Positions 5,993 to 37,802 of a stretch of DNA of 37,802 nucleotides are shown piece after piece. The stretch lies in contig DVMB01000057.1 of assembly GCA_018715225.1 (NCBI GenBank), forward strand, positions 1-37,802, written 5' to 3'. Numbering within the stretch: position 1 is the stretch's first letter; each line of letters starts with the position of its first letter. This DNA comes from Candidatus Onthoplasma faecigallinarum. Its GTDB lineage: Bacteria; Bacillota; Clostridia; Christensenellales; UBA1242. The position numbers and the translations under genes were made by a program. Below the pieces are notes generated by a model, which did not search any database, was not told the origin of the DNA, and worked only from the letters and a program-made list of their open reading frames with translations.

Positions 5993-6036
5993 CTGTTACC
6001 TACGAAATTATAATACGACATTTCATAAATAAAAGC

Positions 6037-6064
6037 AAATAAAAAACGAACCCCTCGGTTCGTT
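6037..6064 (-). terminator. intrinsic terminator after the 68-aa ORF
   Basis: Minus strand reads AACGAACC-gagg-GGTTCGTT followed by a T-run. It overlaps the stop codon. Confidence 0.7.
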
Positions 6065-6269
6065 ATTCTTTCATATTTTGCTGGTCATCTTTATTGTTTG
6101 CTTTCTCAACATCAGTGGGCTCTTGAATATTGGCTTGGTTCTTTTCAACAAACTCTTTGATGATCTGTCTATCTTTTTTATCCATCATGACAAATGTAAC
6201 AATCAATGCTACGATTGCCACTGCCAAAACTGCTAAAACAATATACCAACTAGAATATACAAAAAACAT
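6063..6269 (-). CDS. small membrane-anchored protein (68 aa), N-terminal paralogue of the next gene
   Basis: AGGAGAAG RBS. A TM helix is followed by MDKKDRQIIKEFVEKN, which parallels LDRKDKKILADFQEKV in the 313-aa neighbour. Confidence 0.6.
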   Translation of the reverse strand: MFFVYSSWYIVLAVLAVAIVALIVTFVMMDKKDRQIIKEFVEKNQANIQEPTDVEKANNKDDQQNMKE

Positions 6270-7444: not shown

Positions 7445-8921
7445 ACAACAGGATACATAGGATTCCGCCCTTACCCTCGTTGACAATTCGTGTCAGCGTC
7501 CTCCTAAGTTTGTTTTGCAAGTTTTCTGGCATGGATGTAAGTTTTGTGTTCAGTCCATCATTCACCAGACTCTCCAACGATTTTCCAAACATATTCGTCT
7601 GCCAAATACCTTGTGGATTGTTCTCAAATTCTTTCAATAAAAATTTCACCAATTCTTCGCTCTGCTCGTACCCACCCATGATTGGACTAACTTCGGTCTC
7701 GACATTGACTTTCATAATATGTAGCGAAGGTGCTTCTGCTTTTAACTTCACGCCACAGCGTCCGCCCTGTCGAACTATCTCTGGTTCTTTTAGTTCCATC
7801 TCGTCAATACTAGGCATGACGATACCATAACCTGTTTCGTTCACTTGCTCTAGTGCTTTACTCAATTTGTCATATTTCCTTTTTGCTAAGGTTAAATCTT
7901 TTAGGCTATTTATCAATTCATAATCATCTTTTATTTCTGTACCACACTGCTCGCTAAGAACCCTATAGAACAAGCCCTCTTTTGGCATAATTTCAAAAGT
8001 TACGGCACCGGATCCCATCTCTATGTTGCTGTTCAATATTGGTTCAAAACATTGAGAATCTTCAAACAAAATTTTGTTGGTGTCATACTCTCCAATGCGT
8101 CCTGCTTCGCCAATCGCTGAACTGACAGTATCCAATATCTCTTTGATTGTAGGATTTTCTATCGGCAATGGTTTCAGCCATTTTGGGATTCTTATATTCA
8201 CCACTTCTAGTGGAAATTCTTTTAAAATTTCTGTCATAATACTATCTACATTTTCCTTTTTTAATTCATTTACATTCATAGGGAGAACTGGAATATTATA
8301 TTCGTTTTGCAATTTATTTTTTAGTTCAATCACTTTTTCATCTTCTGGGTTTACCGTATTTAGCACGAGGACAAATGGTTTACCTGTAGATTGCAACTGC
8401 TTTATCGTACGCCTCTCAGCCTCTACAAAATTCTCCCTTGGTATCTCGCCAAAACTTCCGTCAGTAGTTACCGCCACCGCAATTGTGGAATGTTCGTTGA
8501 TTACCTTTTCCGTACCTATCACAGCTGCCTGCACGAATGGTATCGCCTCATCGCTCCATGGAGTTTTGACGAGTCTTGGTTTGTCATTATCGTATGCCCC
8601 TGTCGCACCGTCTACCATAAACCCCACAGAGTCAATCAATCTAACTGACATTGTCGTATTGTTGATCTTTATCTTCACTGCCTCATTGGGAACAAACTGT
8701 GGCTTCGTTGTCATGACCATGCTCCCCGCACTCGCCTGTGGCAGTTCGTCGTTGGCACGTGCCCTGTCGTGCTTGTTGGTTATATTATCTAGCACAAAAT
8801 TTTGAATAAACTTTTGAATAAAAGTCGATTTACCACATCTAACCGGACCTACGACTCCAATATAAACATCTCCATTCGTCCTTTTTGCAATGTCCGTGTA
8901 GATGCTAGAATTTTTATCCAT
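7443..8921 (-). CDS. spoIVA: stage IV sporulation protein A (spore-coat basement-layer ATPase)
   Basis: MDKNSSIYTDIAKRTNGDVYIGVVGPVRCGKSTFIQKF is the SpoIVA N-terminus with its Walker A motif. From the ATG at 8921 (GGAGG RBS 5 nt upstream) the product is 492 aa, the length I recall for B. subtilis SpoIVA. The track's longer N-terminal extension is rejected. Confidence 0.93.
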   Translation of the reverse strand: MDKNSSIYTDIAKRTNGDVYIGVVGPVRCGKSTFIQKFIQNFVLDNITNKHDRARANDELPQASAGSMVMTTKPQFVPNEAVKIKINNTTMSVRLIDSVGFMVDGATGAYDNDKPRLVKTPWSDEAIPFVQAAVIGTEKVINEHSTIAVAVTTDGSFGEIPRENFVEAERRTIKQLQSTGKPFVLVLNTVNPEDEKVIELKNKLQNEYNIPVLPMNVNELKKENVDSIMTEILKEFPLEVVNIRIPKWLKPLPIENPTIKEILDTVSSAIGEAGRIGEYDTNKILFEDSQCFEPILNSNIEMGSGAVTFEIMPKEGLFYRVLSEQCGTEIKDDYELINSLKDLTLAKRKYDKLSKALEQVNETGYGIVMPSIDEMELKEPEIVRQGGRCGVKLKAEAPSLHIMKVNVETEVSPIMGGYEQSEELVKFLLKEFENNPQGIWQTNMFGKSLESLVNDGLNTKLTSMPENLQNKLRRTLTRIVNEGKGGILCILL

Positions 8922-10308: not shown

Positions 10309-11149
10309 TGACTTTACCTGATTTCTTTTTGTACGTATTTATTAGCAATACGACCACCCCAGCGATGACCATTAGCATGCTCAACAATTGGGATACACGT
10401 ATACCACTCGAGCCTATGTACAGAGAGTCCGTTCGTAGCCCTTCAATAAACGCACGTCCTATTCCATACCAAATCAAATATGTGGCAGTGGTAGTCCCTG
10501 TAACCTTTGATTTGTAGTACACCCAAATCAGTATACCTACGCCAATAAAATTCCAAATACTCTCATAGAAGAATGTAGCCTGGAACCATGCGTTTTCACT
10601 CTCTATCCAAACAGCATACGGAAACCACTGCAAGTCTGGGTTGGTAACCATGTTCCCGTACGCTTCCTGATTGAAAAAATTGCCCCATCTACCCAATGAC
10701 TGTCCCAACAGCAAGCATGGAACGCATACATCGCAAATCACTCCTAAAATCTTGATGTTTTTTTTGATTAGGCAAAAGATAATTATGCCAATCAATCCAC
10801 CTATTACGCCACCATAAATTGCAAGCCCACCTTGACGTAAATTAAATAATTCCCAAAAAGAATAATCGTATTCATAAAAAAAACAATAATACAATCGTGC
10901 ACCAACCACCGCACATGGCAAGATTATGAGGGCAAGTAAAATGATGTCATCACTCTTTATTCCACGCTTTTTTGCAAGGAAGCACGCAAGAATAATGCCT
11001 ATCAACATAGCGACAGACATAATCAATCCATAAAATTTGATTTCAAACGAGCCAATATAAAAGCCATCAGGTGGAATATAGTACAAATTCATACTATCAT
11101 TATAGAAATAGCAAGCCAAAAAATCAAACAAATTTTTGATGTTTGTCAA
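10301..11149 (-). CDS. lgt: prolipoprotein diacylglyceryl transferase
   Basis: Lgt signatures QGGLAIYGGVIGG and LGRWGNFFNQEAYG in a polytopic membrane protein. The start is uncertain: TTG at 11149 or ATG at 11092, neither with a clear SD. Confidence 0.88.
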   Translation of the reverse strand: MTNIKNLFDFLACYFYNDSMNLYYIPPDGFYIGSFEIKFYGLIMSVAMLIGIILACFLAKKRGIKSDDIILLALIILPCAVVGARLYYCFFYEYDYSFWELFNLRQGGLAIYGGVIGGLIGIIIFCLIKKNIKILGVICDVCVPCLLLGQSLGRWGNFFNQEAYGNMVTNPDLQWFPYAVWIESENAWFQATFFYESIWNFIGVGILIWVYYKSKVTGTTTATYLIWYGIGRAFIEGLRTDSLYIGSSGIRVSQLLSMLMVIAGVVVLLINTYKKKSGKVNG

Positions 11150-11395
11150 TTAATTTAAAATCACATAAAAACTGCAAACATAAGACAATTTCCGCAACTT
11201 TTTGATAGAAATTTCAACGATTGAATACTATCAAAACAAGCATCATAGCTTAAAAAGTAGAAGCCAATAATGTAAATTAAGTATGTGTATGTGAAAATAT
11301 GTATAATACAAAATAGATATAAATAGATGTGAGAAATATAAATATAATATAATACTAAATTAACCTAATCAAATTAAAAAACATAAGTATATATT

Positions 11396-12661
11396 ATGAA
11401 ATATTTTGGAACGGACGGCATACGTGGTGTTGTGGATAAGACAATAGATAAAAAACTCATCAAGAAGATTTGTAATGCCATATTGATGTTTTATAAAAAA
11501 CACAAGTTAAACAATGTTCTGTTGGTTGGAAACGACTCTAGAATATCAAGTGATTACATATTATCCAATATAGAATCTAGTTTGCTAAACCACGGCATAC
11601 AGGTCGACAATATCGGCATATGCTCCAGCCCTTGCCTAGCGTATCTATGCAAAAAATACAAATACCCGCTAGCCATGATGATAAGTGCATCGCATAATAG
11701 TTGGGAATACAACGGCATAAAATTTTTCAATTCGAAAGGCGAAAAATTGAGCGAAAAATACGAGCAAGAATTTGAATCATTTATGGACTTACCCGCACGA
11801 AGACACAAAGTCAAATATGCACTGAGAAAAAATGTGGAAAACTTCAAGTACGACTACATTTCCATGCTGAAGAGATTAAAACGCTTTGACTTTCCGTGCA
11901 TAATTGACTGTGCATGTGGAGGTGCTAGCGAAATTGTCAAATCTGTTTTCAAAAGGCAATTCGTCATCAACTCGAACTTCAACGGATACAACATCAACGA
12001 AAATTCGGGCTGTACGAATATTGATCTATTAAAATTTATGTGCGTCAAAAATCATCTGTGTGGATTCGCAATTGATGGCGACGGCGACAGATTGAACATC
12101 GTCGATGAAAAAGGAAATATAATTTCGGGAGACAAAATACTCTTCATCCTCTCAAAATTTTTTCAAAAATCAAATGATATTTTAGTGGGAACAAAATATA
12201 CAAATTTGGGATTGGAAAACGCCCTTAACAAGCGAAATATAAAATTGCTTCGTGCGGACGTTGGAGACAAAAAGGTATATCACATGATGAAAGAATATTC
12301 GTCCACCCTGGGAGGCGAAAATTCTGGACACATAATAATAAAACACCACACGAGTACGGGAGACGGAATCCTTACGGCAATCATAATATGTAACATCATA
12401 GAAATCACAAATCTCACTTTTGATGAATTGCTATCTGGCTATCACGAATATCATCAAGAATTTCTAAATCTAAAATTGGACACAACTTTTAGCCTGAATG
12501 AAGATATGAAATGTCTTATCAACAAATACGAAACGGACGGAGCACGAATCGTCATTCGCCCAAGTGGAACTGAACCAGTTCTACGCATCATGGTTGAACA
12601 TAAAGATGAAAAAAGTGCAAAAAATATCATAAATCACATAAAAAACTTGATAAAAACTTAA
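11396..12661 (+). CDS. glmM: alpha-D-phosphohexomutase, phosphoglucosamine-mutase-like
   Basis: MKYFGTDGIRG N-terminus, phosphoserine loop ISASHNSWEYNGIKFF, metal loop FAIDGDGDR, sugar loop GGENSGH. The phosphoserine loop deviates from the canonical SHNP..DNG (see findings). Confidence 0.72.
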   Translation: MKYFGTDGIRGVVDKTIDKKLIKKICNAILMFYKKHKLNNVLLVGNDSRISSDYILSNIESSLLNHGIQVDNIGICSSPCLAYLCKKYKYPLAMMISASHNSWEYNGIKFFNSKGEKLSEKYEQEFESFMDLPARRHKVKYALRKNVENFKYDYISMLKRLKRFDFPCIIDCACGGASEIVKSVFKRQFVINSNFNGYNINENSGCTNIDLLKFMCVKNHLCGFAIDGDGDRLNIVDEKGNIISGDKILFILSKFFQKSNDILVGTKYTNLGLENALNKRNIKLLRADVGDKKVYHMMKEYSSTLGGENSGHIIIKHHTSTGDGILTAIIICNIIEITNLTFDELLSGYHEYHQEFLNLKLDTTFSLNEDMKCLINKYETDGARIVIRPSGTEPVLRIMVEHKDEKSAKNIINHIKNLIKT

Positions 12662-29034: not shown

Positions 29035-31035
29035 TTACAACAACACTCTATCATTCTCAAAAGAAGTGTCTGCCAAATTTAGTCGAGGATATATTCTATA
29101 AATAATTGGAATATATCTTTTTTTCGTAGATTTAGCCATCTCTTTTGCTCGTTCTGCATTGATTTTCCTTTCGTCTATATACACGATTGGGAGGTTGTAT
29201 TTTGAGGCGATTTCTATATCGGTTTTTGTAATTGTTGTCTTGCACAATACATAATCTGCCTTGAAAATTTTTTGTCCGTTTTTATTTATAGTATTTGGTG
29301 TTGCTTTGATCTTGATTTCATTATAACCATATGTCAAAGACATAAAACTATCTACATCAATATATGTAGGCATATATTGTGTTACCGCATGGGCAAAACT
29401 ATATTTCTCCACTTTGCCTCTATTGGAATATAACGTAAAACTATCTCTATTCAAGGCGTGAATTACCGCACCGTCGTCTACTTTTGAGTATCCTAAAATA
29501 ACTTCCCCATCATACGTCTCCAACTTATTTCGCCCGAGAAGGCTCATGCTGATATTGATGTTGTGCTCTCCATTAGGAATAGGAGTAAACAATTCCTTCC
29601 CTTCATTAGGTACCCTTTCCGCATGCACTAAACAATGAAAATTTGTGTCCGTGATATCGTATACTTTCACTCCATTAGGTAAAATCTTTGTCGCTGTGCC
29701 AGCTGGTTTATATAGTGTTTCGTTGATATGTCGATTGAAAAATTCTCGTGATTTTTTAAATAAAGCCGCAAAATTTTCAGCCAAACTTATTTTTTCATCA
29801 TTTGTCCATAAATTTTGTAATTTTACGCACATATTTTTTAAATTTTTAACATCTTCAAGCGAAGCGATATTATTTAGTGAATTCATACCCTCCGCCTCAT
29901 TCGGTTTGCTTTTTAACTCATATTGCAGTTCGTCCACTAAAACCTGTATTATTTCATGTCCACGTTTCGTGAGAATTCCATCAAAACTTGGCAGTGTATT
30001 CATGGTGTCATATATGACACTCGCCATTAAGAATGTATCATGCGGACTTGCCGCAAAATATCTATCAAAGACAATCTGCTTCACTCTGTTTAGATCATAA
30101 TTATCTTGGTTTATTTTATTGGACAAAAATGCTTGAATTATTCTATCATATTCTTGATTTCTGTATTTTTGAATAAAGCTAATAACATCTTTATTCTTTA
30201 CGCCTAAATGCAGTGCAATTTTTCTAAACCTTTCTATAGGATATACTGATATTGCTTCATTTATAAATAATTGATCTAAATAAATGCTACTAGGCAAAGT
30301 AAATTCATAGCCATTTTCTATTAACTTGAATAAATTGTCTATGTCATCTTTGTCAAAATTTGAAAAACTTTTCTTACTATATATAAAAGTTAGGTTTTCT
30401 GGTGCTAATGATGACAGTAATTTGAAATTTTTGAAATAAATGCTAAAAATTTTTTCATTCGCTAAAAGTTGGTTTATATCTTTGATCGCTATAGCATTTG
30501 CAGAATAATCCCTTTCATATTCTAGCACGTATTCCTCAGGATATAATGCGTCCTGTACTATTGCAAGCACATCGTAAGAGTGCTGATTTTTTTCTAGACA
30601 ATGACATAAGATTTTGAACCTCGTTTGGTAATCAATATTTGTCCTGGCCCATCCCATAAAAGTTTCAGTGAACTGCACATTCTCTATCAAATAATGATAG
30701 AAATATGGTTTGTTTACTAGGCTCTTTTTCACATCGTCGTTTAGCCAAACCGCAATATATGTTAACTTTTTCTCCACTTCTGGACATTCACTAAAAAACG
30801 TTACAAAAAATTCGTCATCAAATAAATCGTCAACTGTCTTAAGAGTCAGTTGTTGCATGATATTGCCCCATTTTGAGCGTGGCAAAGTTTTGATGATATA
30901 TTCTCTAAACGAACTATCTTTCAATAGCTTTGAAAATTGACTCTTGTCCTCCAAAGATAGTCTAGAGACAAATTCAGGCAAATCATCTAAATATTTGGTC
31001 CAATCTGTATAATTTATTTGAGACATAATTTCCAT
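29035..31035 (-). CDS. large orphan protein (666 aa), function unknown
   Basis: Long uninterrupted ORF in an AT-rich background, a monocistronic unit with a terminator upstream at 31145-31171. No TM helix, no P-loop, no motif I can assign with confidence (see findings). Confidence 0.8.
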   Translation of the reverse strand: MEIMSQINYTDWTKYLDDLPEFVSRLSLEDKSQFSKLLKDSSFREYIIKTLPRSKWGNIMQQLTLKTVDDLFDDEFFVTFFSECPEVEKKLTYIAVWLNDDVKKSLVNKPYFYHYLIENVQFTETFMGWARTNIDYQTRFKILCHCLEKNQHSYDVLAIVQDALYPEEYVLEYERDYSANAIAIKDINQLLANEKIFSIYFKNFKLLSSLAPENLTFIYSKKSFSNFDKDDIDNLFKLIENGYEFTLPSSIYLDQLFINEAISVYPIERFRKIALHLGVKNKDVISFIQKYRNQEYDRIIQAFLSNKINQDNYDLNRVKQIVFDRYFAASPHDTFLMASVIYDTMNTLPSFDGILTKRGHEIIQVLVDELQYELKSKPNEAEGMNSLNNIASLEDVKNLKNMCVKLQNLWTNDEKISLAENFAALFKKSREFFNRHINETLYKPAGTATKILPNGVKVYDITDTNFHCLVHAERVPNEGKELFTPIPNGEHNINISMSLLGRNKLETYDGEVILGYSKVDDGAVIHALNRDSFTLYSNRGKVEKYSFAHAVTQYMPTYIDVDSFMSLTYGYNEIKIKATPNTINKNGQKIFKADYVLCKTTITKTDIEIASKYNLPIVYIDERKINAERAKEMAKSTKKRYIPIIYRIYPRLNLADTSFENDRVLL

Positions 31036-31144
31036 CTGCGCATACCCTAAAATCTATAAAATCTAATTAAAAATTAAAAATTTTATGTTATTATCACTAT
31101 TATACATAAAATTTTATAAAATTCAAACTAAAATATAAATTTTT

Positions 31145-31171
31145 AAAAAACACAGCCATCAATATGCTGTG
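31145..31171 (-). terminator. intrinsic terminator after the ferritin-like gene
   Basis: Minus strand reads CACAGC-atattgatg-GCTGTG followed by TTTTTT. Confidence 0.65.
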
Positions 31172-31196
31172 CTTTATTTTTTACTTATTTTAGTAA

Positions 31197-32453
31197 TTAT
31201 GAATTTTTTAGATTTTTTCGACCCAAATTGATGTTGTCGTTCTTCCTATCTCTCAATTCTTTTACAGGATTTTCCTTGTCTTCAAACCGATAGTCCTTGC
31301 CAAATTTTTTGATCGCTTTCATTATGACAGCATGACTAGGAACTCTCTCTTCATCTTTTATAAACTCATTTTGATACATGAAGAAATCTGCATTATTTTT
31401 CAATTGCATGACATTGATATATTTTTCTCTATCTCCAGTCAGCAAAACCGTCCTCTCCAAGACCTCTCTCACATACTTTTTGTTAGTACCCAGTGTCAAC
31501 AATTTTGGAAATTTTCCATTGCCAATTACCCCAGTGTATGATTTCTTTTCATATTTATTCAACAACTCGCACGCTGTCTTCAAGTGTGCACATTCCATTT
31601 CAAAATATTGCAACCATATGCTCTTTATATATTCATCGGTCTCTTCTTGGTATGCACTATAATACAAATACGCTTCTGTATACTCATGCAGTACCCACAT
31701 CTCCAACCACGAACAAGTTGGATCTTTTAGACTCTCATACTGTGTTACATGCTCTTCTTCGACTAAACCAATCTTTGCGTATAGTTTTCTACCTAACTCA
31801 TTTTTGTACCATTGACTGATGTTCATATAATAATTCATCGTTTGCTGTTCTGCTGCCGTGATAATGTTTGCTACTAATTTGCTATACAAATCACTTTTGC
31901 TCGCCTTCATCGGTATTTTCACATTGTCTTTTGGATATCTATGATGTGCTATTGTCGGTCTCCCTGGTGTAATCTCAGTAAATTCGCCCACCAATGCTTT
32001 TGGATCGGCATCCTTTACATCTAATAGCATCAAATTGCTAAATCTATATAAATGATCAAAATCTTCTAGAAGTGCGAAATTAAGCGCTTCCACATTTGCC
32101 TTATCTTTATCATTTTGTGCCAAAGTGGCAGTCAAATCAATGGCTAACTGCTCGTATGATATTGTGGTCTCTAAAATACTTTCATTTATTGGCTTTAGAC
32201 ATGCGATCTGTTTTTGTTGTTGCTGTTCTTGTTGACGCACAACTGCCAACATATTCTTTATCTCAGCATTATCGCAATGTCTAGCGAACTGATGAAGAAA
32301 CCACACGCTCTCATATTCTGTACCATTCATCAAAATTACCCTAGTTTTAGTATAGGGAGATGTTGTATCCTTTTTGTAAGGTTTTGGATACAATTCATTC
32401 AAACTGATAAAATATTTATCTATATCTTTTGTCTTATATTCCAATGGATTCAT
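31197..32453 (-). CDS. ferritin-like / diiron four-helix-bundle protein candidate (418 aa)
   Basis: Start moved to MNPLEYK (GGAGGG RBS 5 nt upstream). The track's N-terminal extension has no RBS. Candidate carboxylate/His ligand helices are GTEYESVWFLHQFARH, ALLEDFDHLYRF, AAEQQTMNYY, LVEEEHVTQYE and FEMECAHLK. The functional call is tentative. Confidence 0.6.
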   Translation of the reverse strand: MNPLEYKTKDIDKYFISLNELYPKPYKKDTTSPYTKTRVILMNGTEYESVWFLHQFARHCDNAEIKNMLAVVRQQEQQQQKQIACLKPINESILETTISYEQLAIDLTATLAQNDKDKANVEALNFALLEDFDHLYRFSNLMLLDVKDADPKALVGEFTEITPGRPTIAHHRYPKDNVKIPMKASKSDLYSKLVANIITAAEQQTMNYYMNISQWYKNELGRKLYAKIGLVEEEHVTQYESLKDPTCSWLEMWVLHEYTEAYLYYSAYQEETDEYIKSIWLQYFEMECAHLKTACELLNKYEKKSYTGVIGNGKFPKLLTLGTNKKYVREVLERTVLLTGDREKYINVMQLKNNADFFMYQNEFIKDEERVPSHAVIMKAIKKFGKDYRFEDKENPVKELRDRKNDNINLGRKNLKNS

Positions 32454-32681
32454 ATTGCCCTCCATCAAAATGATAACCAAGGACACCATGAATATACATA
32501 GAATAATCAATTTTAGATTAATTTTAAGATCGATTTTAAACAAGGCATTATGATAGCAAATTTTTACTTTTGCGTTTAAAACCGACTGGTATTTTAAAAA
32601 TCATACCATGCAATAATCTACATTTATGAATCAATTAAATTGTTATAAAAATAAAAAATATTAATATTTAATTATCATTAT

Positions 32682-32712
32682 TTGACAAATTGATGGCAAT
32701 GTGTGATATAAT
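32682..32712 (+). promoter_or_regulatory. promoter for the lipoprotein gene
   Basis: TTGACA at 32682-32687 and TGa-TATAAT at 32704-32712. The 19-nt spacer is long, so the extended -10 probably dominates. Confidence 0.4.
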
Positions 32713-32734
32713 TATTTATATGAGGAGAAGTTAT

Positions 32735-33856
32735 ATGAAAAAATTTATGATGACTATCTGTCTTTGTGCAGTTTTTCTAGTCAGCGGAATAATGCTTGCC
32801 GCATGTGGAGATAAACAACTGCCTACGACCTACACAATAACTTTGCCGACTTCAACAGACTACACTATTGAAAGTGATAGAGAAAATGCTGAAGCTGGTC
32901 AAGAAATCACTTTGATGATAACCATTTTAAACAACAAGTTAGTGCTCGAAAATGTTTTTGCAAACAATATTGCTTGTGAAGAAAATTATAATGGCACTTT
33001 CTCTTTTACAATGCCAGCTGAAAATGTAACAATATCTGTGCAAACGAGCCAAATACAAGAAGTCCTTTCAACAAACTTTGTATGGTTTGACGACGACAAT
33101 CTCTACACTATTACAGAAGATGGAGATGGAACATACGATTGGTACACAAGAGATTTGAACATTACCTTCGCCGATAAACAAGGTATGATTATTGTCAATG
33201 AAACTATCTCGTCGTCTAACCAAGGGGTCATTCCAGATACAGCTATTACATTTGATCCAGTAACCGACAGCGATCTACATGGCGCAAGTGGTTCAAATGA
33301 AATTGTTAAGGGAGTTATTAAAATAGATCCATTCAATATTCATTCTGGCACAACCTATTTAACAATGGAATTTGTTAATGGAAACTATTCTTATGGAGAT
33401 TCAAACAGAGGAACTCTTGTAGTTAGAATTACAGTCGTTCCATATGGAGAATTGACGCTTGAAACAGTGAAAGAGACATTAGTTATTGACCTATTTAGTG
33501 AATTACAATATTCAACGGGCGATACCTTTTGTCTAAGGATTGGAGACAGCGACCATATTGATGGCACGTCAAATCCAAGTTTTGTCGACTATGTTTTAAC
33601 AATGGAATCTGGTCGCAGACTGATAGTAGAATTTGATTATATTTTAGGACACAAATATTGGATACGACTTGTAGAAGGCGACACTCAACCAAACATTCCT
33701 GTAGGTTATGTTGAAGAGTTCGTTTTTGACAATTCAATAGAATCTGGCGATGAAGAAAGTGAATACACAGGCTATTACAACGGCAGTTTAATGTATATGG
33801 AAGCAAATGACAGAGTGACGATTGATGCAGAAAGAAATCCCGCCCTCGAAGATTAA
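32735..33856 (+). CDS. lipoprotein (373 aa), beta-rich extracytoplasmic protein
   Basis: Start set at MKKFMMTICLCAVFLVSGIMLAAC (GAGGAG RBS). LAAC is a lipobox with Cys at +1. The mature part is Thr/Asn/Asp-rich with no recognisable enzyme motif. Confidence 0.8.
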   Translation: MKKFMMTICLCAVFLVSGIMLAACGDKQLPTTYTITLPTSTDYTIESDRENAEAGQEITLMITILNNKLVLENVFANNIACEENYNGTFSFTMPAENVTISVQTSQIQEVLSTNFVWFDDDNLYTITEDGDGTYDWYTRDLNITFADKQGMIIVNETISSSNQGVIPDTAITFDPVTDSDLHGASGSNEIVKGVIKIDPFNIHSGTTYLTMEFVNGNYSYGDSNRGTLVVRITVVPYGELTLETVKETLVIDLFSELQYSTGDTFCLRIGDSDHIDGTSNPSFVDYVLTMESGRRLIVEFDYILGHKYWIRLVEGDTQPNIPVGYVEEFVFDNSIESGDEESEYTGYYNGSLMYMEANDRVTIDAERNPALED

Positions 33857-33865
33857 TTTAAAAAT

Positions 33866-33898
33866 AAGGATTAGACTAAACCTAATCCTTATTTTTTT
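33866..33898 (+). terminator. intrinsic terminator after the lipoprotein gene
   Basis: AAGGATTAG-actaaac-CTAATCCTT followed by ATTTTTTT. Confidence 0.8.
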
Positions 33899-34434
33899 AC
33901 TTTTCATATACATCAAAGCCCCAATTAGCCTTTACCCTTTACTCAAATGCACCATAACAAATTTTCTCAAAAACCTTTTGAAAAAGCGAAATAGAAATAT
34001 TTTTAATCTACATCTGTGCACAAAAAAACTCTCAATACTTTAAATACAAATCTGCTTTATGAAAACGTGCTGATTTGATAACTCCACAAACATTAAAATA
34101 ACTAATCTTAAACTGGAAATTGACGATCTTGGAAATAAAGCATAATTGAGAATAATACAAATTTCAAATTGACCAAAAAGATGGTTTTAATTATTTATAC
34201 AATACATTATATTTTGAATCACACCCGTCGATAAATTGTTCAATCAACCCACTTTAAGACATCAAAAAGTACCTTTATTTAGTATTCCAACAACTTTAAA
34301 AAAGGCATAAAATATAACTTAAAACCAAAACCTATAAACTACCACAAATCAATCAAAACAAACAAAGCATCAAATAGAGAAATTTATGAAAATGCATATA
34401 CTATTTTATAATATAAACTATATAAAAATAGTAC

Positions 34435-35427
34435 TTAATCGATTTTTTTCTTAAATAAATTAATTTCATCACGTAATTTGATACCCTTTGAAGTTAAATA
34501 ATAATATAAACCTTTTCCCTCAATCCATTTAGTATCCATTAATTTTAATGCAATAAATTGGTTGCAAATCCTTTTTGAAACATTTTTATCGACTAAGCAA
34601 TTAAAATTATCGGCTCCTATAGATTTTGCTATGTAATCACGAACCGCATTCTCTGCAACACTTACATTTATCATATTTATTGAAACATATCCAAATATTT
34701 CTTTTAAAGTAATTTCTTTATTGTGATGCAGCGTAACATATCGACCGCCTCTATAGTTTGTAGATGTGAATTCTATATTAATTTTATTATCATCAAATTC
34801 CAGTTCACCATCAAAAGAAGAATACTCCTCTAGTGATTTTTTTAAAGAAGAAATTTCTTCTACTAACTTTTTATTTTCATCTTGTAACGTAGTAATTTTT
34901 TTTAAGTTTTCTGTTAAATCATAATCAATTCCTCGTATCCAACCAGACCTAATATTTTCTTCTTTCGCTTTCATAATAGATATTGCCAATTTGCCGGATA
35001 AATCACCTAAATCTTTCCAAATGCTAGCTAATCTATTCGTCATAGCTTTTTCTCTAAATTTTTTTAATTTGAATAAAATTTCAATATCTTTATCTCTTTT
35101 ATCATCACTTAATTTAACAGATTCATCAATAGCAAAAACTAAAACGGGAACTCCCTGCGATACTGCATAGTCATATTCCATTTCAGTATAACTCAAACCT
35201 GTAGTTTTGTTAATACTCCCATATTTACCACCGATAATCAACACGTAATAATCACACAAATCAATTACCTTTTTTATTACTTCAAATTGTTCGTCATTGG
35301 CCGCAACAAACACTTCCATTCCCGCTGGAATACAGTCAGCCATTAATAAAATTTCTTGAGCTTTTTTGCGTTCTTCAATTAAATCTTTATAAGTTGAACT
35401 AATAAAAACTTGATATTTTTTCTCCAT
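34435..35427 (-). CDS. DUF4062 (TIR / nucleoside 2-deoxyribosyltransferase-like) domain protein with coiled coil and wHTH-like C-terminus (330 aa)
   Basis: Start set at MEKKYQVFISS (AAGGAG RBS 6 nt upstream; the track's TTG start lies inside the promoter/RBS). The VFISSTYKDLIEER, CDYYVLIIGGKYGS and SYTEMEYDYAVSQGVPVLVF motifs match the DUF4062 pattern as I remember it. Confidence 0.78.
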   Translation of the reverse strand: MEKKYQVFISSTYKDLIEERKKAQEILLMADCIPAGMEVFVAANDEQFEVIKKVIDLCDYYVLIIGGKYGSINKTTGLSYTEMEYDYAVSQGVPVLVFAIDESVKLSDDKRDKDIEILFKLKKFREKAMTNRLASIWKDLGDLSGKLAISIMKAKEENIRSGWIRGIDYDLTENLKKITTLQDENKKLVEEISSLKKSLEEYSSFDGELEFDDNKINIEFTSTNYRGGRYVTLHHNKEITLKEIFGYVSINMINVSVAENAVRDYIAKSIGADNFNCLVDKNVSKRICNQFIALKLMDTKWIEGKGLYYYLTSKGIKLRDEINLFKKKID

Positions 35428-35447
35428 CGACTTCTCCTTTGTCAAGT

Positions 35448-35456
35448 ATTATAACA
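35448..35456 (-). promoter_or_regulatory. extended -10 promoter directly upstream of the DUF4062 gene
   Basis: Minus strand reads TGt-TATAAT (35456-35448). A ~14-nt leader containing AAGGAG follows. Confidence 0.5.
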
Positions 35457-35524
35457 CATTTTGCAAATTAATAAAAGACCCTTAACATAAAAAGAATAAG
35501 CTTTTCAACTTCTTTTTAGTTGTT

Positions 35525-35764
35525 TTATTGATTGTTTTGCAAATGGGTATAAACTGCATTTGCTGATAGGTTTGAAAAGTTACCATTTGTTTCGGCAAAG
35601 GCTTTTAAATCATGAGCAAGAAGAAAAGATATTTTCTCTATCTGCTTTGAGTTTAAATTGACTTTACCTAATTTTAGTTCGTGTGAATTAAAATCAAAAA
35701 CGGCAGTGTTTTCATCTATATCTTTACAATCAATAAAGCATTGATTGTTATTCGTTTTTATCAT
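35525..35764 (-). CDS. small hypothetical protein (79 aa) upstream of the DUF4062 gene
   Basis: Open frame on the same strand, 97 nt upstream of the DUF4062 start. No SD and no recognisable motif. Coding status unproven. Confidence 0.45.
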   Translation of the reverse strand: MIKTNNNQCFIDCKDIDENTAVFDFNSHELKLGKVNLNSKQIEKISFLLAHDLKAFAETNGNFSNLSANAVYTHLQNNQ

Positions 35765-35802
35765 AATTACTTACTAAAAAGCGAATAACACCAAAGAACA
35801 CT

Positions 35803-35820
35803 TGGACTATTTAAAGTCCA
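35803..35820. promoter_or_regulatory. palindromic operator candidate TGGACT-N6-AGTCCA
   Basis: Perfect 6-bp inverted arms (35803-35808 and 35815-35820). They lie immediately downstream of the -10 at 35826-35831 and so span the predicted transcription start of the 79-aa ORF. Confidence 0.45.
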
Positions 35821-35825
35821 TAATT

Positions 35826-35834
35826 ATTATAACA
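35826..35834 (-). promoter_or_regulatory. extended -10 promoter for the 79-aa ORF
   Basis: Minus strand reads TGt-TATAAT (35834-35826). Confidence 0.45.
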
Positions 35835-35864
35835 TTTTTCTTTTCAATTTTCTACATTTTCGAC

Positions 35865-35892
35865 AAAAAAAGACAAGTGGGTATCCCACTTG
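35865..35892 (-). terminator. intrinsic terminator ending the C-R transcript
   Basis: Minus strand reads CAAGTGGG-ata-CCCACTTG followed by TCTTTTTTT. Confidence 0.72.
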
Positions 35893-36038
35893 GTCTAATA
35901 AGGGGAAATGACTCAAAATTGAAACTTTGACTTTTTAGGGGTGAATCATCAGAAAGACTTATAATATAAGGCTTCTTTACACTTAAAAAACGATTTTGAG
36001 TCTATTTCCTTATCCTGCTTCTAATAAATATATAATTT

Positions 36039-36647
36039 TTAATCAAGAAAAGGTTTTAATTTTTCATTAAAATGCTTTAAAAGATCTTCTCCAGATTGTC
36101 CTGGTCTCCACATAAAATAATTATCCTGATATTTATCATACCAAAACATAATTTCTCTAACTCTTTTAGGATCTCTTGTAATGTCGCCTTGAAAAACCAC
36201 CCAAAAAGGGAGTATTCTTTCATCTGTTATGTTACTAACTTTTCTATATGCTTTTATTAATCCTGGAGTAAATAATTTACATGATCTTTCATTTGCATTA
36301 CCTCGTCCAGCACTAGGATTTTTGCCTTCAACCCAACCATCTTGTCTTTTTATTTCCCCAAATAATATTTTATGAGTTTCACAATTTTCTATTGCGAAAT
36401 CGGGGGATACTCCCCATTTGGTATCTTCTAATTTTATATTAGGATTATAAATAACTGATTTTACAGAATCAGGTATTTCAACTGTGGCATATAAATTTTT
36501 CAAATGCTTTGGTTGTCTATATAGTTTATATTTGGTACCTTTAAATGCATTTTCAAAAACTTCATATAAATTTTGTTCTGCATTGCTAGCAAGCATTCCA
36601 GCATCTTTTTCCCAATTTGATCTTCCACTTAATGCGATTTTTCCCAT
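36039..36647 (-). CDS. type II restriction endonuclease, EcoRI/MunI-like PD-(D/E)xK fold (202 aa)
   Basis: Start set at MGKIALSG, where the AAGGAG RBS overlaps the C-gene stop. SPDFAI...FGEIKRQ is a PD...ExK catalytic motif. GRGNANERSCK resembles the EcoRI recognition/catalysis segment AAGNAIERSHK. Confidence 0.72.
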   Translation of the reverse strand: MGKIALSGRSNWEKDAGMLASNAEQNLYEVFENAFKGTKYKLYRQPKHLKNLYATVEIPDSVKSVIYNPNIKLEDTKWGVSPDFAIENCETHKILFGEIKRQDGWVEGKNPSAGRGNANERSCKLFTPGLIKAYRKVSNITDERILPFWVVFQGDITRDPKRVREIMFWYDKYQDNYFMWRPGQSGEDLLKHFNEKLKPFLD

Positions 36648-36657
36648 AATATACTCC

Positions 36658-36876
36658 TTATTCGTTTTCAATATTTTCAAATAATTCCGATAACGTTATT
36701 TTTAAACCCTTTGCAATTTTTTCAATATTTATTAAAGAGACGTTTCTATTACCATTTTCTATTGAAGAATAATAGGTCCTATCCATCCCTATCAAATATG
36801 CAAAGTTTTCTTGACTTAGATCTGTTTTTTCTTTTCGTAATTTTTTTATTCGTTTACCAAATTTTTCTTTAATCAT
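36658..36876 (-). CDS. controller (C) protein, XRE-family HTH regulator of the R-M module (72 aa)
   Basis: LSQENFAYLIGMDRTYYSSIENGNRNVSL is a classic XRE HTH. The small size and position immediately upstream of the endonuclease gene, coupled to it, are typical of C proteins. Confidence 0.8.
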   Translation of the reverse strand: MIKEKFGKRIKKLRKEKTDLSQENFAYLIGMDRTYYSSIENGNRNVSLINIEKIAKGLKITLSELFENIENE

Positions 36877-36950
36877 AAAAACCTCTATTAATTATAGTTA
36901 ATTGTAGCATATTTGTTTTTTATAAACAACGGACTATAAGCAACAATTTA

Positions 36951-36979
36951 TTGACAAAAGTTTTTGTTTGTGATATTAT
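36951..36979 (+). promoter_or_regulatory. sigma-A promoter for the methyltransferase gene
   Basis: TTGACA, a 17-nt spacer, then TATTAT. An AAGGAG RBS precedes the ATG at 36999. It is divergent from the C-R operon. Confidence 0.55.
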
Positions 36980-36998
36980 ATAAAATAAGGAGTTCAGT

Positions 36999-37697
36999 AT
37001 GAGTGAAGACGTTACAGCATATTCAATATATAGTAAAAAAGCTAGAAATAATACAAAAATAAATCCCTTAAAAGATTTGTTTCCAGAATTACCTGATAAA
37101 AAATATCAAGTTATATATGCCGATCCTCCATGGGATTATGGTGGGAAGTTACAATATGACAAATCTACAATAAAAGGTGAAAATATCGGTTTTAAGAAAG
37201 ATATTTTTATAAGCTCTGCCTCTTTTAAATATCCTACTCTAAAATTAAAAGAATTAATGATGTTAGATGTTGATAAAATTGCAGATAAAGATTGCATATT
37301 GTTTATGTGGACTACAGGACCTCAAATGTCTAACTCAATTAAATTGGGAGAATCTTGGGGCTTTGAATATAAAACGGTTGCATTTGTGTGGGATAAAATG
37401 GTTCATAACCCTGGCAGATATACTCTATCACAAACTGAATTTGTTTTGGCATTTAAAAAGGGAAAATTTCCTTTGCCAAGAGGAGCACGTAACATAAAAC
37501 AGCTTATAAGCATACATCGTGGGAAACATAGTGAAAAACCAATAGAAGTAATTGAAGGCATTACAAAAATGTTTCCTAGTCAAGATAAGATTGAATTGTT
37601 TGCAAGGAAAAACTACAATAATTGGGATAATTGGGGATTGGAAATTCCCGATTCTAAAATAACTATTCCTACTATCAATGATTTAAAAGATAATTAA
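36999..37697 (+). CDS. MT-A70-family DNA N6-adenine methyltransferase
   Basis: IYADPPWDYGG (DPPW catalytic motif) and the C-terminal ELFARKNYNNWDNWGLE are typical of MT-A70-like enzymes. Confidence 0.87.
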   Translation: MSEDVTAYSIYSKKARNNTKINPLKDLFPELPDKKYQVIYADPPWDYGGKLQYDKSTIKGENIGFKKDIFISSASFKYPTLKLKELMMLDVDKIADKDCILFMWTTGPQMSNSIKLGESWGFEYKTVAFVWDKMVHNPGRYTLSQTEFVLAFKKGKFPLPRGARNIKQLISIHRGKHSEKPIEVIEGITKMFPSQDKIELFARKNYNNWDNWGLEIPDSKITIPTINDLKDN

Positions 37698-37759
37698 ATT
37701 ATAATAAATTTTTTTTAATTTTTATATCTTATGTTTCTAAAAATCAAAAGGAGTAATTC

Positions 37760-37802
37760 ATGAACAAAGCTGTTATATATGCAAGATATTCAAGTGATAG
37801 TC
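37760..37802 (+). CDS. serine recombinase, N-terminal 14 codons only (truncated by window end)
   Basis: AAAGGAG RBS, then MNKAVIYARYSSDS. The A.IY.R.S(S/T) pattern is the resolvase/invertase catalytic-serine N-terminus. Confidence 0.55.
   Translation, partial: MNKAVIYARYSSDS

Follow-up and report, generated by a model that had tools for sequence, protein, structure and literature searches.

Organization of the locus

We analyzed a 37,802-nt stretch of DNA from Candidatus Onthoplasma faecigallinarum (contig DVMB01000057.1; hereafter the window), focusing on a minus-strand gene that encodes a 330-amino-acid (aa) protein with a DUF4062 domain and on a 79-aa open reading frame (ORF) that lies upstream of it, beside a restriction-modification (R-M) system. 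A preliminary description, made from the sequence alone, had reported both ORFs, their 97-nt spacing and several of their peptides, all of which we found in place, and had proposed that they form an undescribed defence system. Our reading is that the larger gene is a Swarozyc-type NADase abortive-infection gene, to which we assign a probability of about 0.8, and that the smaller ORF belongs to the backbone of a mobile island. The larger gene and its parts are as follows.

34435..35427, minus strand: Swarozyc-like gene, 330 aa (runs 35427 to 34435; ATG at 35425-35427)
35427-34933, minus strand: predicted DUF4062/NIR TIR-like NADase domain, roughly residues 1-165
Residues 171-203: helical stalk of the 330-aa protein, a single helix in the AlphaFold 2 (AF2) model
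34815-34438, minus strand: AUX of the 330-aa protein (beta-hairpin and winged helix), residues 205-330
35176-35178, minus strand: codon of E84, the predicted catalytic glutamate and second Glu of TEMEY
35434..35456, minus strand: expression signals, an extended -10 element and a ribosome-binding site (RBS)

Reading the sequence, we found the RBS AAGGAG on the minus strand at 35434-35439, 6 nt 5' of the ATG, and the extended -10 element TGTTATAAT at 35448-35456, in agreement with the promoter and strong RBS that the preliminary description had given this gene. Both signals are kept at the locus of an 83%-identical relative (L012), the extended -10 as TGCTATAAT and the RBS again as AAGGAG. A TTG at 35445, which would give a 336-aa reading, was rejected as the start since the RBS and the N-termini of homologues fit the ATG; in the family alignment these N-termini all read M-x-(x)-KKYQVF. 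Compared with its L012 copy, the gene has a ratio of nonsynonymous to synonymous substitution rates (dN/dS) of 0.078, and it is under purifying selection.

Homology of the 330-aa protein to KpSwz

DUF4062 has been characterised in three preprints from 2026 (Osinski et al., bioRxiv 10.64898/2026.05.01.722283; Ibarra-Chavez et al., bioRxiv 10.64898/2026.06.25.731849; Le Mouellic et al., bioRxiv 10.64898/2026.09.04.749371), the last of which renames the domain NIR. Swarozyc is the name given in May 2026 to short DUF4062-AUX proteins, among them KpSwz from Klebsiella pneumoniae, which protects E. coli, depletes NAD+ and requires both residue E97 and the AUX domain (10.64898/2026.05.01.722283). Consistent with the domain assignment of the preliminary description, Pfam PF13271 (DUF4062) matched residues 6-88 of the 330-aa protein above the gathering score (E = 1.9e-27). 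In a Foldseek search, the N-terminal domain matched SPARTA TIR-APAZ, SARM1, TIR-STING, SpbK, CMP N-glycosidase and DNPH1, and among viral models it matched deoxyribosyltransferase-like proteins of the nucleoside 2-deoxyribosyltransferase (NDT) fold. The copy of the PDB used by Foldseek ends on 8 April 2026 and does not contain KpSwz, which was found by searching PDB chains by sequence. This search returned KpSwz (10wc, 11cq, 11cv) as the sole match below E = 1 (E = 9.9e-46), colinear over query residues 2-326 and chain residues 3-323, and pairwise BLASTP aligned the two proteins at 34% identity over 323 positions (E = 7e-51). Since the same short architecture of DUF4062, stalk and helix-turn-helix (HTH)/winged AUX has been published as Swarozyc, and the alignment runs end to end, the claim of an undescribed system is out of date.

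The homology extends into the AUX. A profile built from this region only (residues 205-330, 22 homologues) and searched against 177,635 PDB sequences ranked the KpSwz AUX (chain 227-324) first (E = 5.9e-4), followed by just non-significant PadR-type winged-helix regulators. The AF2 model of the protein, with a predicted local distance difference test (pLDDT) score of 84, comprises an N-terminal core of alternating beta and alpha elements with five strands, one long helix (171-203), and a C-terminal part consisting of a long beta-hairpin (215-240), three helices, a two-stranded wing (297-311) and a final helix. The long helix aligns with the stalk region of KpSwz. As modelled, this architecture matches the published description of KpSwz, and it contains the enzyme, coiled coil and winged-helix tail that had been recognised in the preliminary description. 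Pfam gave a sub-threshold match to the winged-helix family HTH_45 over residues 279-328 (E = 0.002); the AF2 model and the homology with the KpSwz AUX lend this call support. All Swarozyc features open to in silico analysis were found in the 330-aa protein. Judged by sequence, it is a distant member of the Swarozyc lineage, and under the broad definition of Evangelion, a second group of DUF4062 proteins, it would count as a "DUF4062 core plus diversified AUX" single-gene system.

Among family databases, PHROGs returned a full-length match (phrog_15411, E = 1e-76; function unknown) and NCBIfam none. PADLOC matched neither the 330-aa nor the 79-aa ORF; its version 2 library (2023) is older than the Swarozyc family, so its silence on the 330-aa protein is uninformative. 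Phage GenBank records contained just one weak, half-length match, in an Acinetobacter phage. A protein search with the 330-aa query gave 2,804 matches at E <= 0.001, of which the best 120 listed have lengths of 318-345 aa and a query coverage of 98% or more.

The sole full-length plasmid homologue in PLSDB (36% identity) lies on Acinetobacter junii plasmid pAJ_068-3 (NZ_CP078044.1; L010 5001-6038). It has an in-frame stop before the winged-helix part, and is annotated as 285 aa. Its neighbours are a reverse transcriptase gene on one side and an ISNCY transposase on the other, and past the transposase lies an MspI R-M system.

Catalytic motifs and predicted activity

Evangelion (Eva01) is found on staphylococcal plasmids, and its F11, E87-Y88, Q/W/E and W162 motifs were defined by mutagenesis (10.64898/2026.06.25.731849). 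As a comparison protein we used an Eva01-type protein of 324 aa from a pMW2-like plasmid, which has F11 and E87-Y88 at the published positions. The motif SYTEMEY of the 330-aa protein aligned with SYTEMEY in Eva01 and with SFTEKAF in the KpSwz chain, where the Ala is the E97A substitution of the deposited construct. E84 aligned with Eva01 E87 and with this Ala, and is therefore the predicted catalytic residue; it is invariant in 32 homologues and is followed by Tyr, as in the "E-Y" motif. The preliminary description had named a Glu of TEMEY as the catalytic candidate, which is correct for the motif, but TEMEY holds two invariant Glu residues, and E82 was rejected in favour of E84 on the alignment. 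Furthermore, F8 corresponds to Eva01 F11, E84-Y85 to E87-Y88 and W163 to W162, while Q47-F48-E49 occupies the position of the Q/W/E motif. The catalytic-pocket motifs are all invariant in the family alignment.

These shared motifs bring up an Evangelion-type mechanism as an alternative, in which the same NADase core would be governed by a winged-helix tail that senses DNA intermediates of phage replication or recombination and not a virion protein. Eva01 binds recombination-like DNA and depletes NAD+, and its escapers map to RecA/UvsX-like genes (10.64898/2026.06.25.731849). The DUF4062 core and stalk of the 330-aa protein are 40% identical to the Eva01-type protein and keep all Eva01 motif residues; nucleic-acid binding is common among winged-helix folds, and the weak PadR-like matches of the AUX, although non-significant, would fit such a role. 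However, beyond residue 182 there is no similarity to Eva01, and the two AUX regions are unrelated. The Staphylococcus plasmid matches listed (of 201 Staphylococcus records) all cover residues 4-182 only. The AUX is homologous instead to that of KpSwz, which binds the portal as a protein, and in the tree of the Eva01 authors Swarozyc stands in a lineage apart from Eva01-04 (10.64898/2026.06.25.731849). We consider Eva01-type sensing improbable, and the nucleic-acid sensing that the preliminary description had attributed to the tail is not supported.

The Eva01-type gene differs between two plasmids (L009 1483-2333 versus L011 1483-2457). It encodes 324 aa on pC195_1, and on S. aureus p18809-P04 it is split into ORFs of 205 and 71 aa, probably an inactivated copy. 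An Fst toxin gene precedes the Eva01-type gene in both plasmids, and a small serine recombinase follows it on p18809-P04.

A second alternative concerns the reaction. By analogy with KpSwz and other NIR systems, the 330-aa protein would hydrolyse NAD+ to ADP-ribose (ADPR) and nicotinamide. Instead of simple NAD+ depletion, the TIR-like domain could make a signalling nucleotide, such as the cyclic ADPR isomer of Thoeris, or degrade another nucleotide as a CMP/dNMP N-glycosidase does. The Foldseek matches to the CMP N-glycosidase BcmB, DNPH1 and NDT folds are compatible with this, as are the first annotation of the Avs2 DUF4062 as a CMP hydrolase by Gao et al. (per 10.64898/2026.09.04.749371) and the wider adenine-nucleotide changes in Eva01 metabolomics (10.64898/2026.06.25.731849). 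We nevertheless regard it as very unlikely: KpSwz and TEP1 yielded ADP-ribose and nicotinamide only, with no other ADPR derivatives (10.64898/2026.05.01.722283), the NARP1 NAD+ reconstitution pathway weakens PsAvs2 defence (10.64898/2026.09.04.749371), and no downstream effector gene adjoins the 330-aa gene. PADLOC gave no ThsA or ThsB match for either ORF or for the neighbours. NAD+ depletion leading to abortive infection, as guessed in the preliminary description, would match the experiments on the homologous KpSwz, Eva01, PsAvs2, Vulcan and Vesta.

The 79-aa ORF is an island backbone gene

35525..35764, minus strand: 79-aa ORF, island backbone gene (runs 35764 to 35525; exactly 97 nt upstream of the 330-aa ORF)

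The preliminary description had suggested that the product of this ORF is a partner, inhibitor or regulator of the DUF4062 protein. The ORF has 207 homologues, mostly of exactly 79 aa (72-96% identical among the best 120 listed), and compared with its L012 copy (67% identical) it has a dN/dS of 0.25 at a dS of about 1. These two results rule out a chance ORF; the 79-aa ORF is a real gene under purifying selection. It lacks a Shine-Dalgarno sequence and had no match in Pfam, NCBIfam, PHROGs or PADLOC. Its AF2 model was poor (pLDDT 64), and Foldseek returned nothing below E = 6.

A two-gene system, with the 79-aa protein as a dedicated partner or antitoxin-like inhibitor or regulator, would fit the adjacency of two genes on one strand across a 97-nt gap, the purifying selection on the smaller one, and its presence upstream of the 83%-identical homologue in L012. 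Several observations stand against it. Eight metagenome contigs (L001-L008) carry a 330-aa gene and promoter essentially identical to those of the window, with an identical 330-aa protein. In six of them (L001-L004, L006, L008), the 79-aa region is only about 75% identical and contains at least five in-frame stops, making it a pseudogene; the other two (L005, L007) end before the ORF. In these six contigs, the 330-aa gene directly follows tyrS, full-length in L001, or a tyrS remnant, without an R-M module (e.g. L001 1702-2092). Roughly 130 nt upstream of the 330-aa gene, identity to the window changes abruptly, from about 75% across the 79-aa region to about 100% towards the gene, which indicates a recombination junction near the 3' end of the 79-aa ORF. 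Across 80 genome loci with homologues of the 330-aa protein, the 79-aa ORF is intact only in L012, the closest; L013 keeps its last 18 codons only. Conversely, copies about 95% identical to the 79-aa ORF precede at least 11 other, unrelated defence systems. A terminator-like hairpin, much clearer in L012, and the separate promoter of the 330-aa gene lie between the two genes, and both KpSwz and Eva01 function as single genes (10.64898/2026.05.01.722283; 10.64898/2026.06.25.731849). A dedicated two-gene system thus has only a slim chance of being correct. Because it is decayed beside an identical 330-aa gene, absent at distant homologues and found ahead of unrelated systems, the 79-aa ORF is a backbone gene of the island and not a partner of the Swarozyc-like gene, and it is dispensable in nature.

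A conserved 545-bp module between two cargo slots

The 79-aa ORF forms part of a conserved module with the following features.

35487..36031, minus strand: conserved 545-bp module, comprising an inverted-repeat element, terminator, promoter, inverted repeat, the 79-aa ORF and 38 nt; lies between two variable cargo slots
35902..36012, minus strand: invariant long-range inverted repeat GGaAATrGACTCAAAAT ... TTTTGAGTCATTyCC (arms at about 35993-36012 and 35902-35919)
35874..35892, minus strand: intrinsic terminator hairpin CAAGTGGGATACCCACTTG followed by a T-run (terminator scan, strong)
35854-35826, minus strand: promoter of the 79-aa ORF, TAGAAA-17-TATAAT with TG (consensus promoter scan)
35820-35803, minus strand: inverted repeat TGGACT-N6-AGTCCA at the predicted transcript start of the 79-aa ORF (scan)

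The module was found in more than 20 contigs, with 90-95% identity for most copies; its ends are sharp, and the sequence to either side is unrelated from contig to contig. The module had no match in phage GenBank records or in IMG/VR. The extended -10 and RBS of the 330-aa gene lie outside it and therefore travel with the cargo gene. The promoter and inverted repeat of the 79-aa ORF are kept in closely related copies and differ in the diverged copies L106a, L110 and L012. The preliminary description had placed a perfect palindrome over the start site of this promoter; the promoter and a repeat at the start site are present, but the repeat consists of 6-bp arms around a non-palindromic 6-nt spacer.

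The CAAGTGGGATACCCACTTG terminator, which shows one compensatory GC-to-AU change in L106, ends either the upstream R-M operon or a module RNA. The long inverted repeat lies within the first 165 nt or so of the module, with the terminator next to it (35868-36025), and has 14-16-bp arms separated by about 76 variable nt in which an inner hairpin is kept. RNAalifold recovered an invariant stem with almost no covariation, too little to tell an RNA role from a DNA role, and the repeat may be an RNA element or a protein-binding DNA site. Rfam gave no match across 33800-37802. The module is also a frequent break point of metagenome contigs, as repeats are.

The 330-aa gene is cargo in a mobile defence island

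On the other side of the module are the genes listed here, together with the left ends seen in related contigs.

36039-36680, minus strand: MunI-like type II restriction endonuclease (Pfam RestrictionMunI, E = 4e-59; PADLOC REase_II, E = 3e-108)
36658-36876, minus strand: C-protein (Pfam HTH_3; PADLOC Control_protein, E = 3e-31)
36999-37697, plus strand: MT-A70-family type II methyltransferase of the same R-M module (Pfam MT-A70, E = 1e-18; PADLOC MTase_II, E = 1.5e-67)
37760..37802, plus strand: first 14 codons of a large serine recombinase, MNKAVIYARYSSDS; the gene runs off the window
Left ends with tRNA-Ser and recombinase in relatives: L092 18-108 and 53-1624; L104 2006-2096; L105 155-244; L112 1254-1342; L012 2927-3016

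The C-controlled R-M neighbour named in the preliminary description is therefore present with all three components. Its serine recombinase is also correctly identified, since two full recombinases with Resolvase, Recombinase and Zn_ribbon_recom domains, those of L112 and L092 (509 and 523 aa), begin with the very residues MNKAVIYARYSSDS, but just 14 codons lie inside the window (37760-37801).

In related contigs, the slot upstream of the module always holds a variable R-M module: MunI-like here, and AlwI, DpnII/D12 or C5 and N4 methylases with HNH elsewhere. Beyond this slot lies the large serine recombinase, the 3' end of its gene overlapping a tRNA-Ser gene; such genes are the sites at which these related islands are integrated. 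Across only some 25 contigs, the downstream slot carries no fewer than 12 different systems, known or candidate. Its cargo includes an AriA/GajA-like OLD ATPase, a UG30/Drt6-like reverse transcriptase, a CBASS cyclase with NucC, Pycsar PycC with PycTM, a helicase with DUF2290, Hachiman HamA/HamB, and PDC-S25, PDC-S45, PDC-S49 and PDC-M59A/B; in the window and in L012 it is the Swarozyc-like gene. The right end is marked by a conserved arm of about 55 nt. Its final bases, CTTCCCGCCA, repeat the last 10 nt of tRNA-Ser and form a putative att core; a variable terminator and chromosomal genes lie past the arm. The stop codon of the Swarozyc-like gene is immediately followed by this arm in L012 and L013 (e.g. 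L012 10991-11095). The left end of the window's own island copy lies beyond the window. Islands also occur in tandem: L106 and L112 derive from one 229-kb contig with three module copies together (L106 89-602 and 7739-8251), where the recombinase of one island follows the cargo of the preceding one, and L096 has a second 79-aa ORF (6001-6240 and 8137-8376). The GC content of the island is 26-29%, compared with 41-42% in nearby glycolysis (housekeeping) genes. The defence setting that the preliminary description had drawn from the neighbours holds: the locus is a defence hotspot in a mobile island, with the 330-aa gene as swappable cargo of the downstream slot, and this setting supports a defence role of the gene independently of homology.

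We also inspected the surroundings of more distant homologues, taking two genes on each side of 33 homologues. Type I HsdS accounted for at least 10 of the 117 flanking proteins (PADLOC; 429 families matched), whereas among 89 control genes more than six genes away (82 families matched) no HsdS appeared among the families listed; the comparison is coarse, with counts made per family and not per protein. Homologues 50-54% identical in L021, L022, L023, L027, L029 and L032 (at about 6.8-15.2 kb) appear to sit inside type I R-M operons, and gene lengths there fit the order hsdM-hsdS-Swz-x-hsdR. A non-defence role, either housekeeping nucleotide salvage or a DNA-binding regulator with a degenerate enzyme domain, would suit the winged-helix tail and yet has next to no chance given the invariant catalytic-pocket motifs, the position in a low-GC mobile island, flanked by an R-M system and by other variable DNA, the known defence systems in the same slot elsewhere, the homologues apparently embedded in type I R-M operons, and the patchy family distribution enriched near defence genes (10.64898/2026.05.01.722283; 10.64898/2026.09.04.749371).

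Several slot proteins had no PADLOC match and are, by position, candidate new defence genes: a 666-aa HATPase_c_3 protein (L095:389-2389, minus strand; also in L100, L102 and L113), proteins of 480 aa (L098:1477-2919), 271 aa (L103:2240-3055) and 366 aa (L115:356-1456), and a 192-aa protein beside a DRT reverse transcriptase (L094:1956-2534). Speculatively, the 545-bp module might control the island as a whole or serve as a docking site, and in this way govern how the downstream cassette is expressed or exchanged. The Swarozyc-like gene would in that case share its control with many other interchangeable cargos, and the unannotated 666-aa HATPase_c_3, 480-, 271- and 366-aa proteins would be new defence systems; we think this unlikely.

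Within the window, three large ORFs (666, 448 and 388 aa) occupy 29035-33856 between the Swarozyc-like gene and housekeeping genes, and had no significant match in Pfam, NCBIfam, PHROGs or PADLOC. The 388-aa product has a hydrophobic, signal-peptide-like N-terminus, and the 448-aa ORF has a DNA match of about 68% identity near the L093 island (10493-11731).

Proposed mechanism

Building on the homology, motif conservation, predicted architecture, purifying selection and island setting established here, we propose that the 330-aa protein acts as a single-gene abortive-infection system of the Swarozyc type. In this model, a DUF4062 (NIR) TIR-like NADase with E84 as catalytic Glu would be joined through a helical stalk to a C-terminal AUX sensor consisting of a long beta-hairpin followed by a winged-helix core. 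The gene would be expressed from its own extended -10 promoter and RBS, beside the MunI-like C-controlled R-M system. KpSwz at rest is an autoinhibited "bouquet", its TIR-like heads carried on helical stalks. The Bas14 portal activates it in vitro, with as many as 13 HTH/winged AUX domains gathering around the portal via a hairpin anchor (10.64898/2026.05.01.722283). By analogy, the 330-aa protein would rest as an autoinhibited oligomer held by its TIR-like heads and stalks. Upon infection, its AUX domains would bind a component of the phage (the portal dodecamer in the case of KpSwz), and this binding would re-align the stalks and free the active sites, leading to NAD+ loss and abortive infection.

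A number of points weigh against this reading. KpSwz, on which the functional role assigned here by analogy depends, is just 34% identical, and the AUX similarity is weak (23 bits with the AUX-only profile). The Trp of the Q/W/E motif is replaced by Phe across the whole clade of the 330-aa protein in the family alignment. The portal-anchoring hairpin tip of KpSwz (W238-Y239) is matched in part only (…NYRGGRY…), and no part of the family alignment is more variable or richer in indels than the tip region. Finally, neither the right arm nor the tRNA was detected in the window or its close relatives, so the window's island copy is rearranged at its right end. The trigger is the least certain part of the proposal because of the weak AUX similarity and the variable tip; a phage portal is our default guess, possible but doubtful, and drawn from KpSwz.

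While the Swarozyc kind of system is already known, the distant member in a gut Clostridia-like host is new. With it, Swarozyc reaches beyond the Enterobacteriaceae proteins that have been tested, into a large clade of gut Clostridia and other Bacillota, whose strongly diverged sensor domain offers material for studying how a single NADase scaffold comes to respond to new phage cues. The island with its 545-bp module, although of a class already known (defence hotspots in mobile elements), is a more useful by-product than the gene itself: a short conserved module marks a variable slot and can thus be used as bait for finding new defence genes in uncultured gut bacteria.

Comparison with known systems

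The 330-aa protein most resembles Swarozyc. It is similar in length to KpSwz (330 aa versus a 326-aa chain), has the same domain order (DUF4062 TIR-like NADase, helical stalk, and HTH/winged AUX with a beta-hairpin) and a catalytic Glu in the same motif, and both are single genes in a defence island. It differs in that identity is much lower in the AUX than overall, in its Q-F-E in place of Q/W/E, and in its hairpin-tip residues, so that its trigger may not be the portal. KpSwz comes from the Enterobacteriaceae, whereas the host here is an uncultured low-GC gut Clostridia-like bacterium.

With Evangelion type 1 (Eva01, S. aureus pMW2-type plasmids), it shares the DUF4062 core and the start of the stalk (40% identity over 183 aligned positions), the equivalents of F11, E87-Y88 and W162, and the organization as a single-gene system on mobile DNA adjoining a serine recombinase. 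In contrast, the BLASTP alignment stops at residue 182, leaving no similarity over the C-terminal 140 aa, and Eva01 is plasmid-borne, linked to resistance genes, and escaped through recombination genes.

PsAvs2, Vulcan and Vesta deplete NAD+ (10.64898/2026.09.04.749371) and, like human TEP1, have in common with the 330-aa protein an NADase effector domain, a catalytic Glu and NAD+ depletion as output, which for our protein is predicted by analogy. Their sensors are a STAND NTPase with TPR (Avs2), HEAT repeats (Vulcan), a small ligand-binding domain with an alkaline phosphatase partner (Vesta) and TROVE/NACHT/WD40 (TEP1), none of which occurs in the 330-aa protein. Pfam detected in it no STAND/NACHT NTPase domain or C-terminal repeats, its C-terminus in the AF2 model is a 125-aa hairpin and winged helix without HEAT repeats, and no phosphatase (VstB) was found among the neighbours of its gene.

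A shallow search of the literature did not turn up the present island family. In its general plan it resembles other defence hotspots of mobile islands, such as P4-like satellites, hotspot 5 of the SXT integrative and conjugative element, pipolins (PMC11551731) and recombinase-linked defence (PMC13552941), where a conserved backbone flanks hypervariable defence cargo and a recombinase lies at one end beside a tRNA gene. It is set apart from them by its large serine recombinase, its 545-bp module with the 79-aa ORF, its right arm of about 55 nt, and its two cargo slots, one of which is always occupied by an R-M system.

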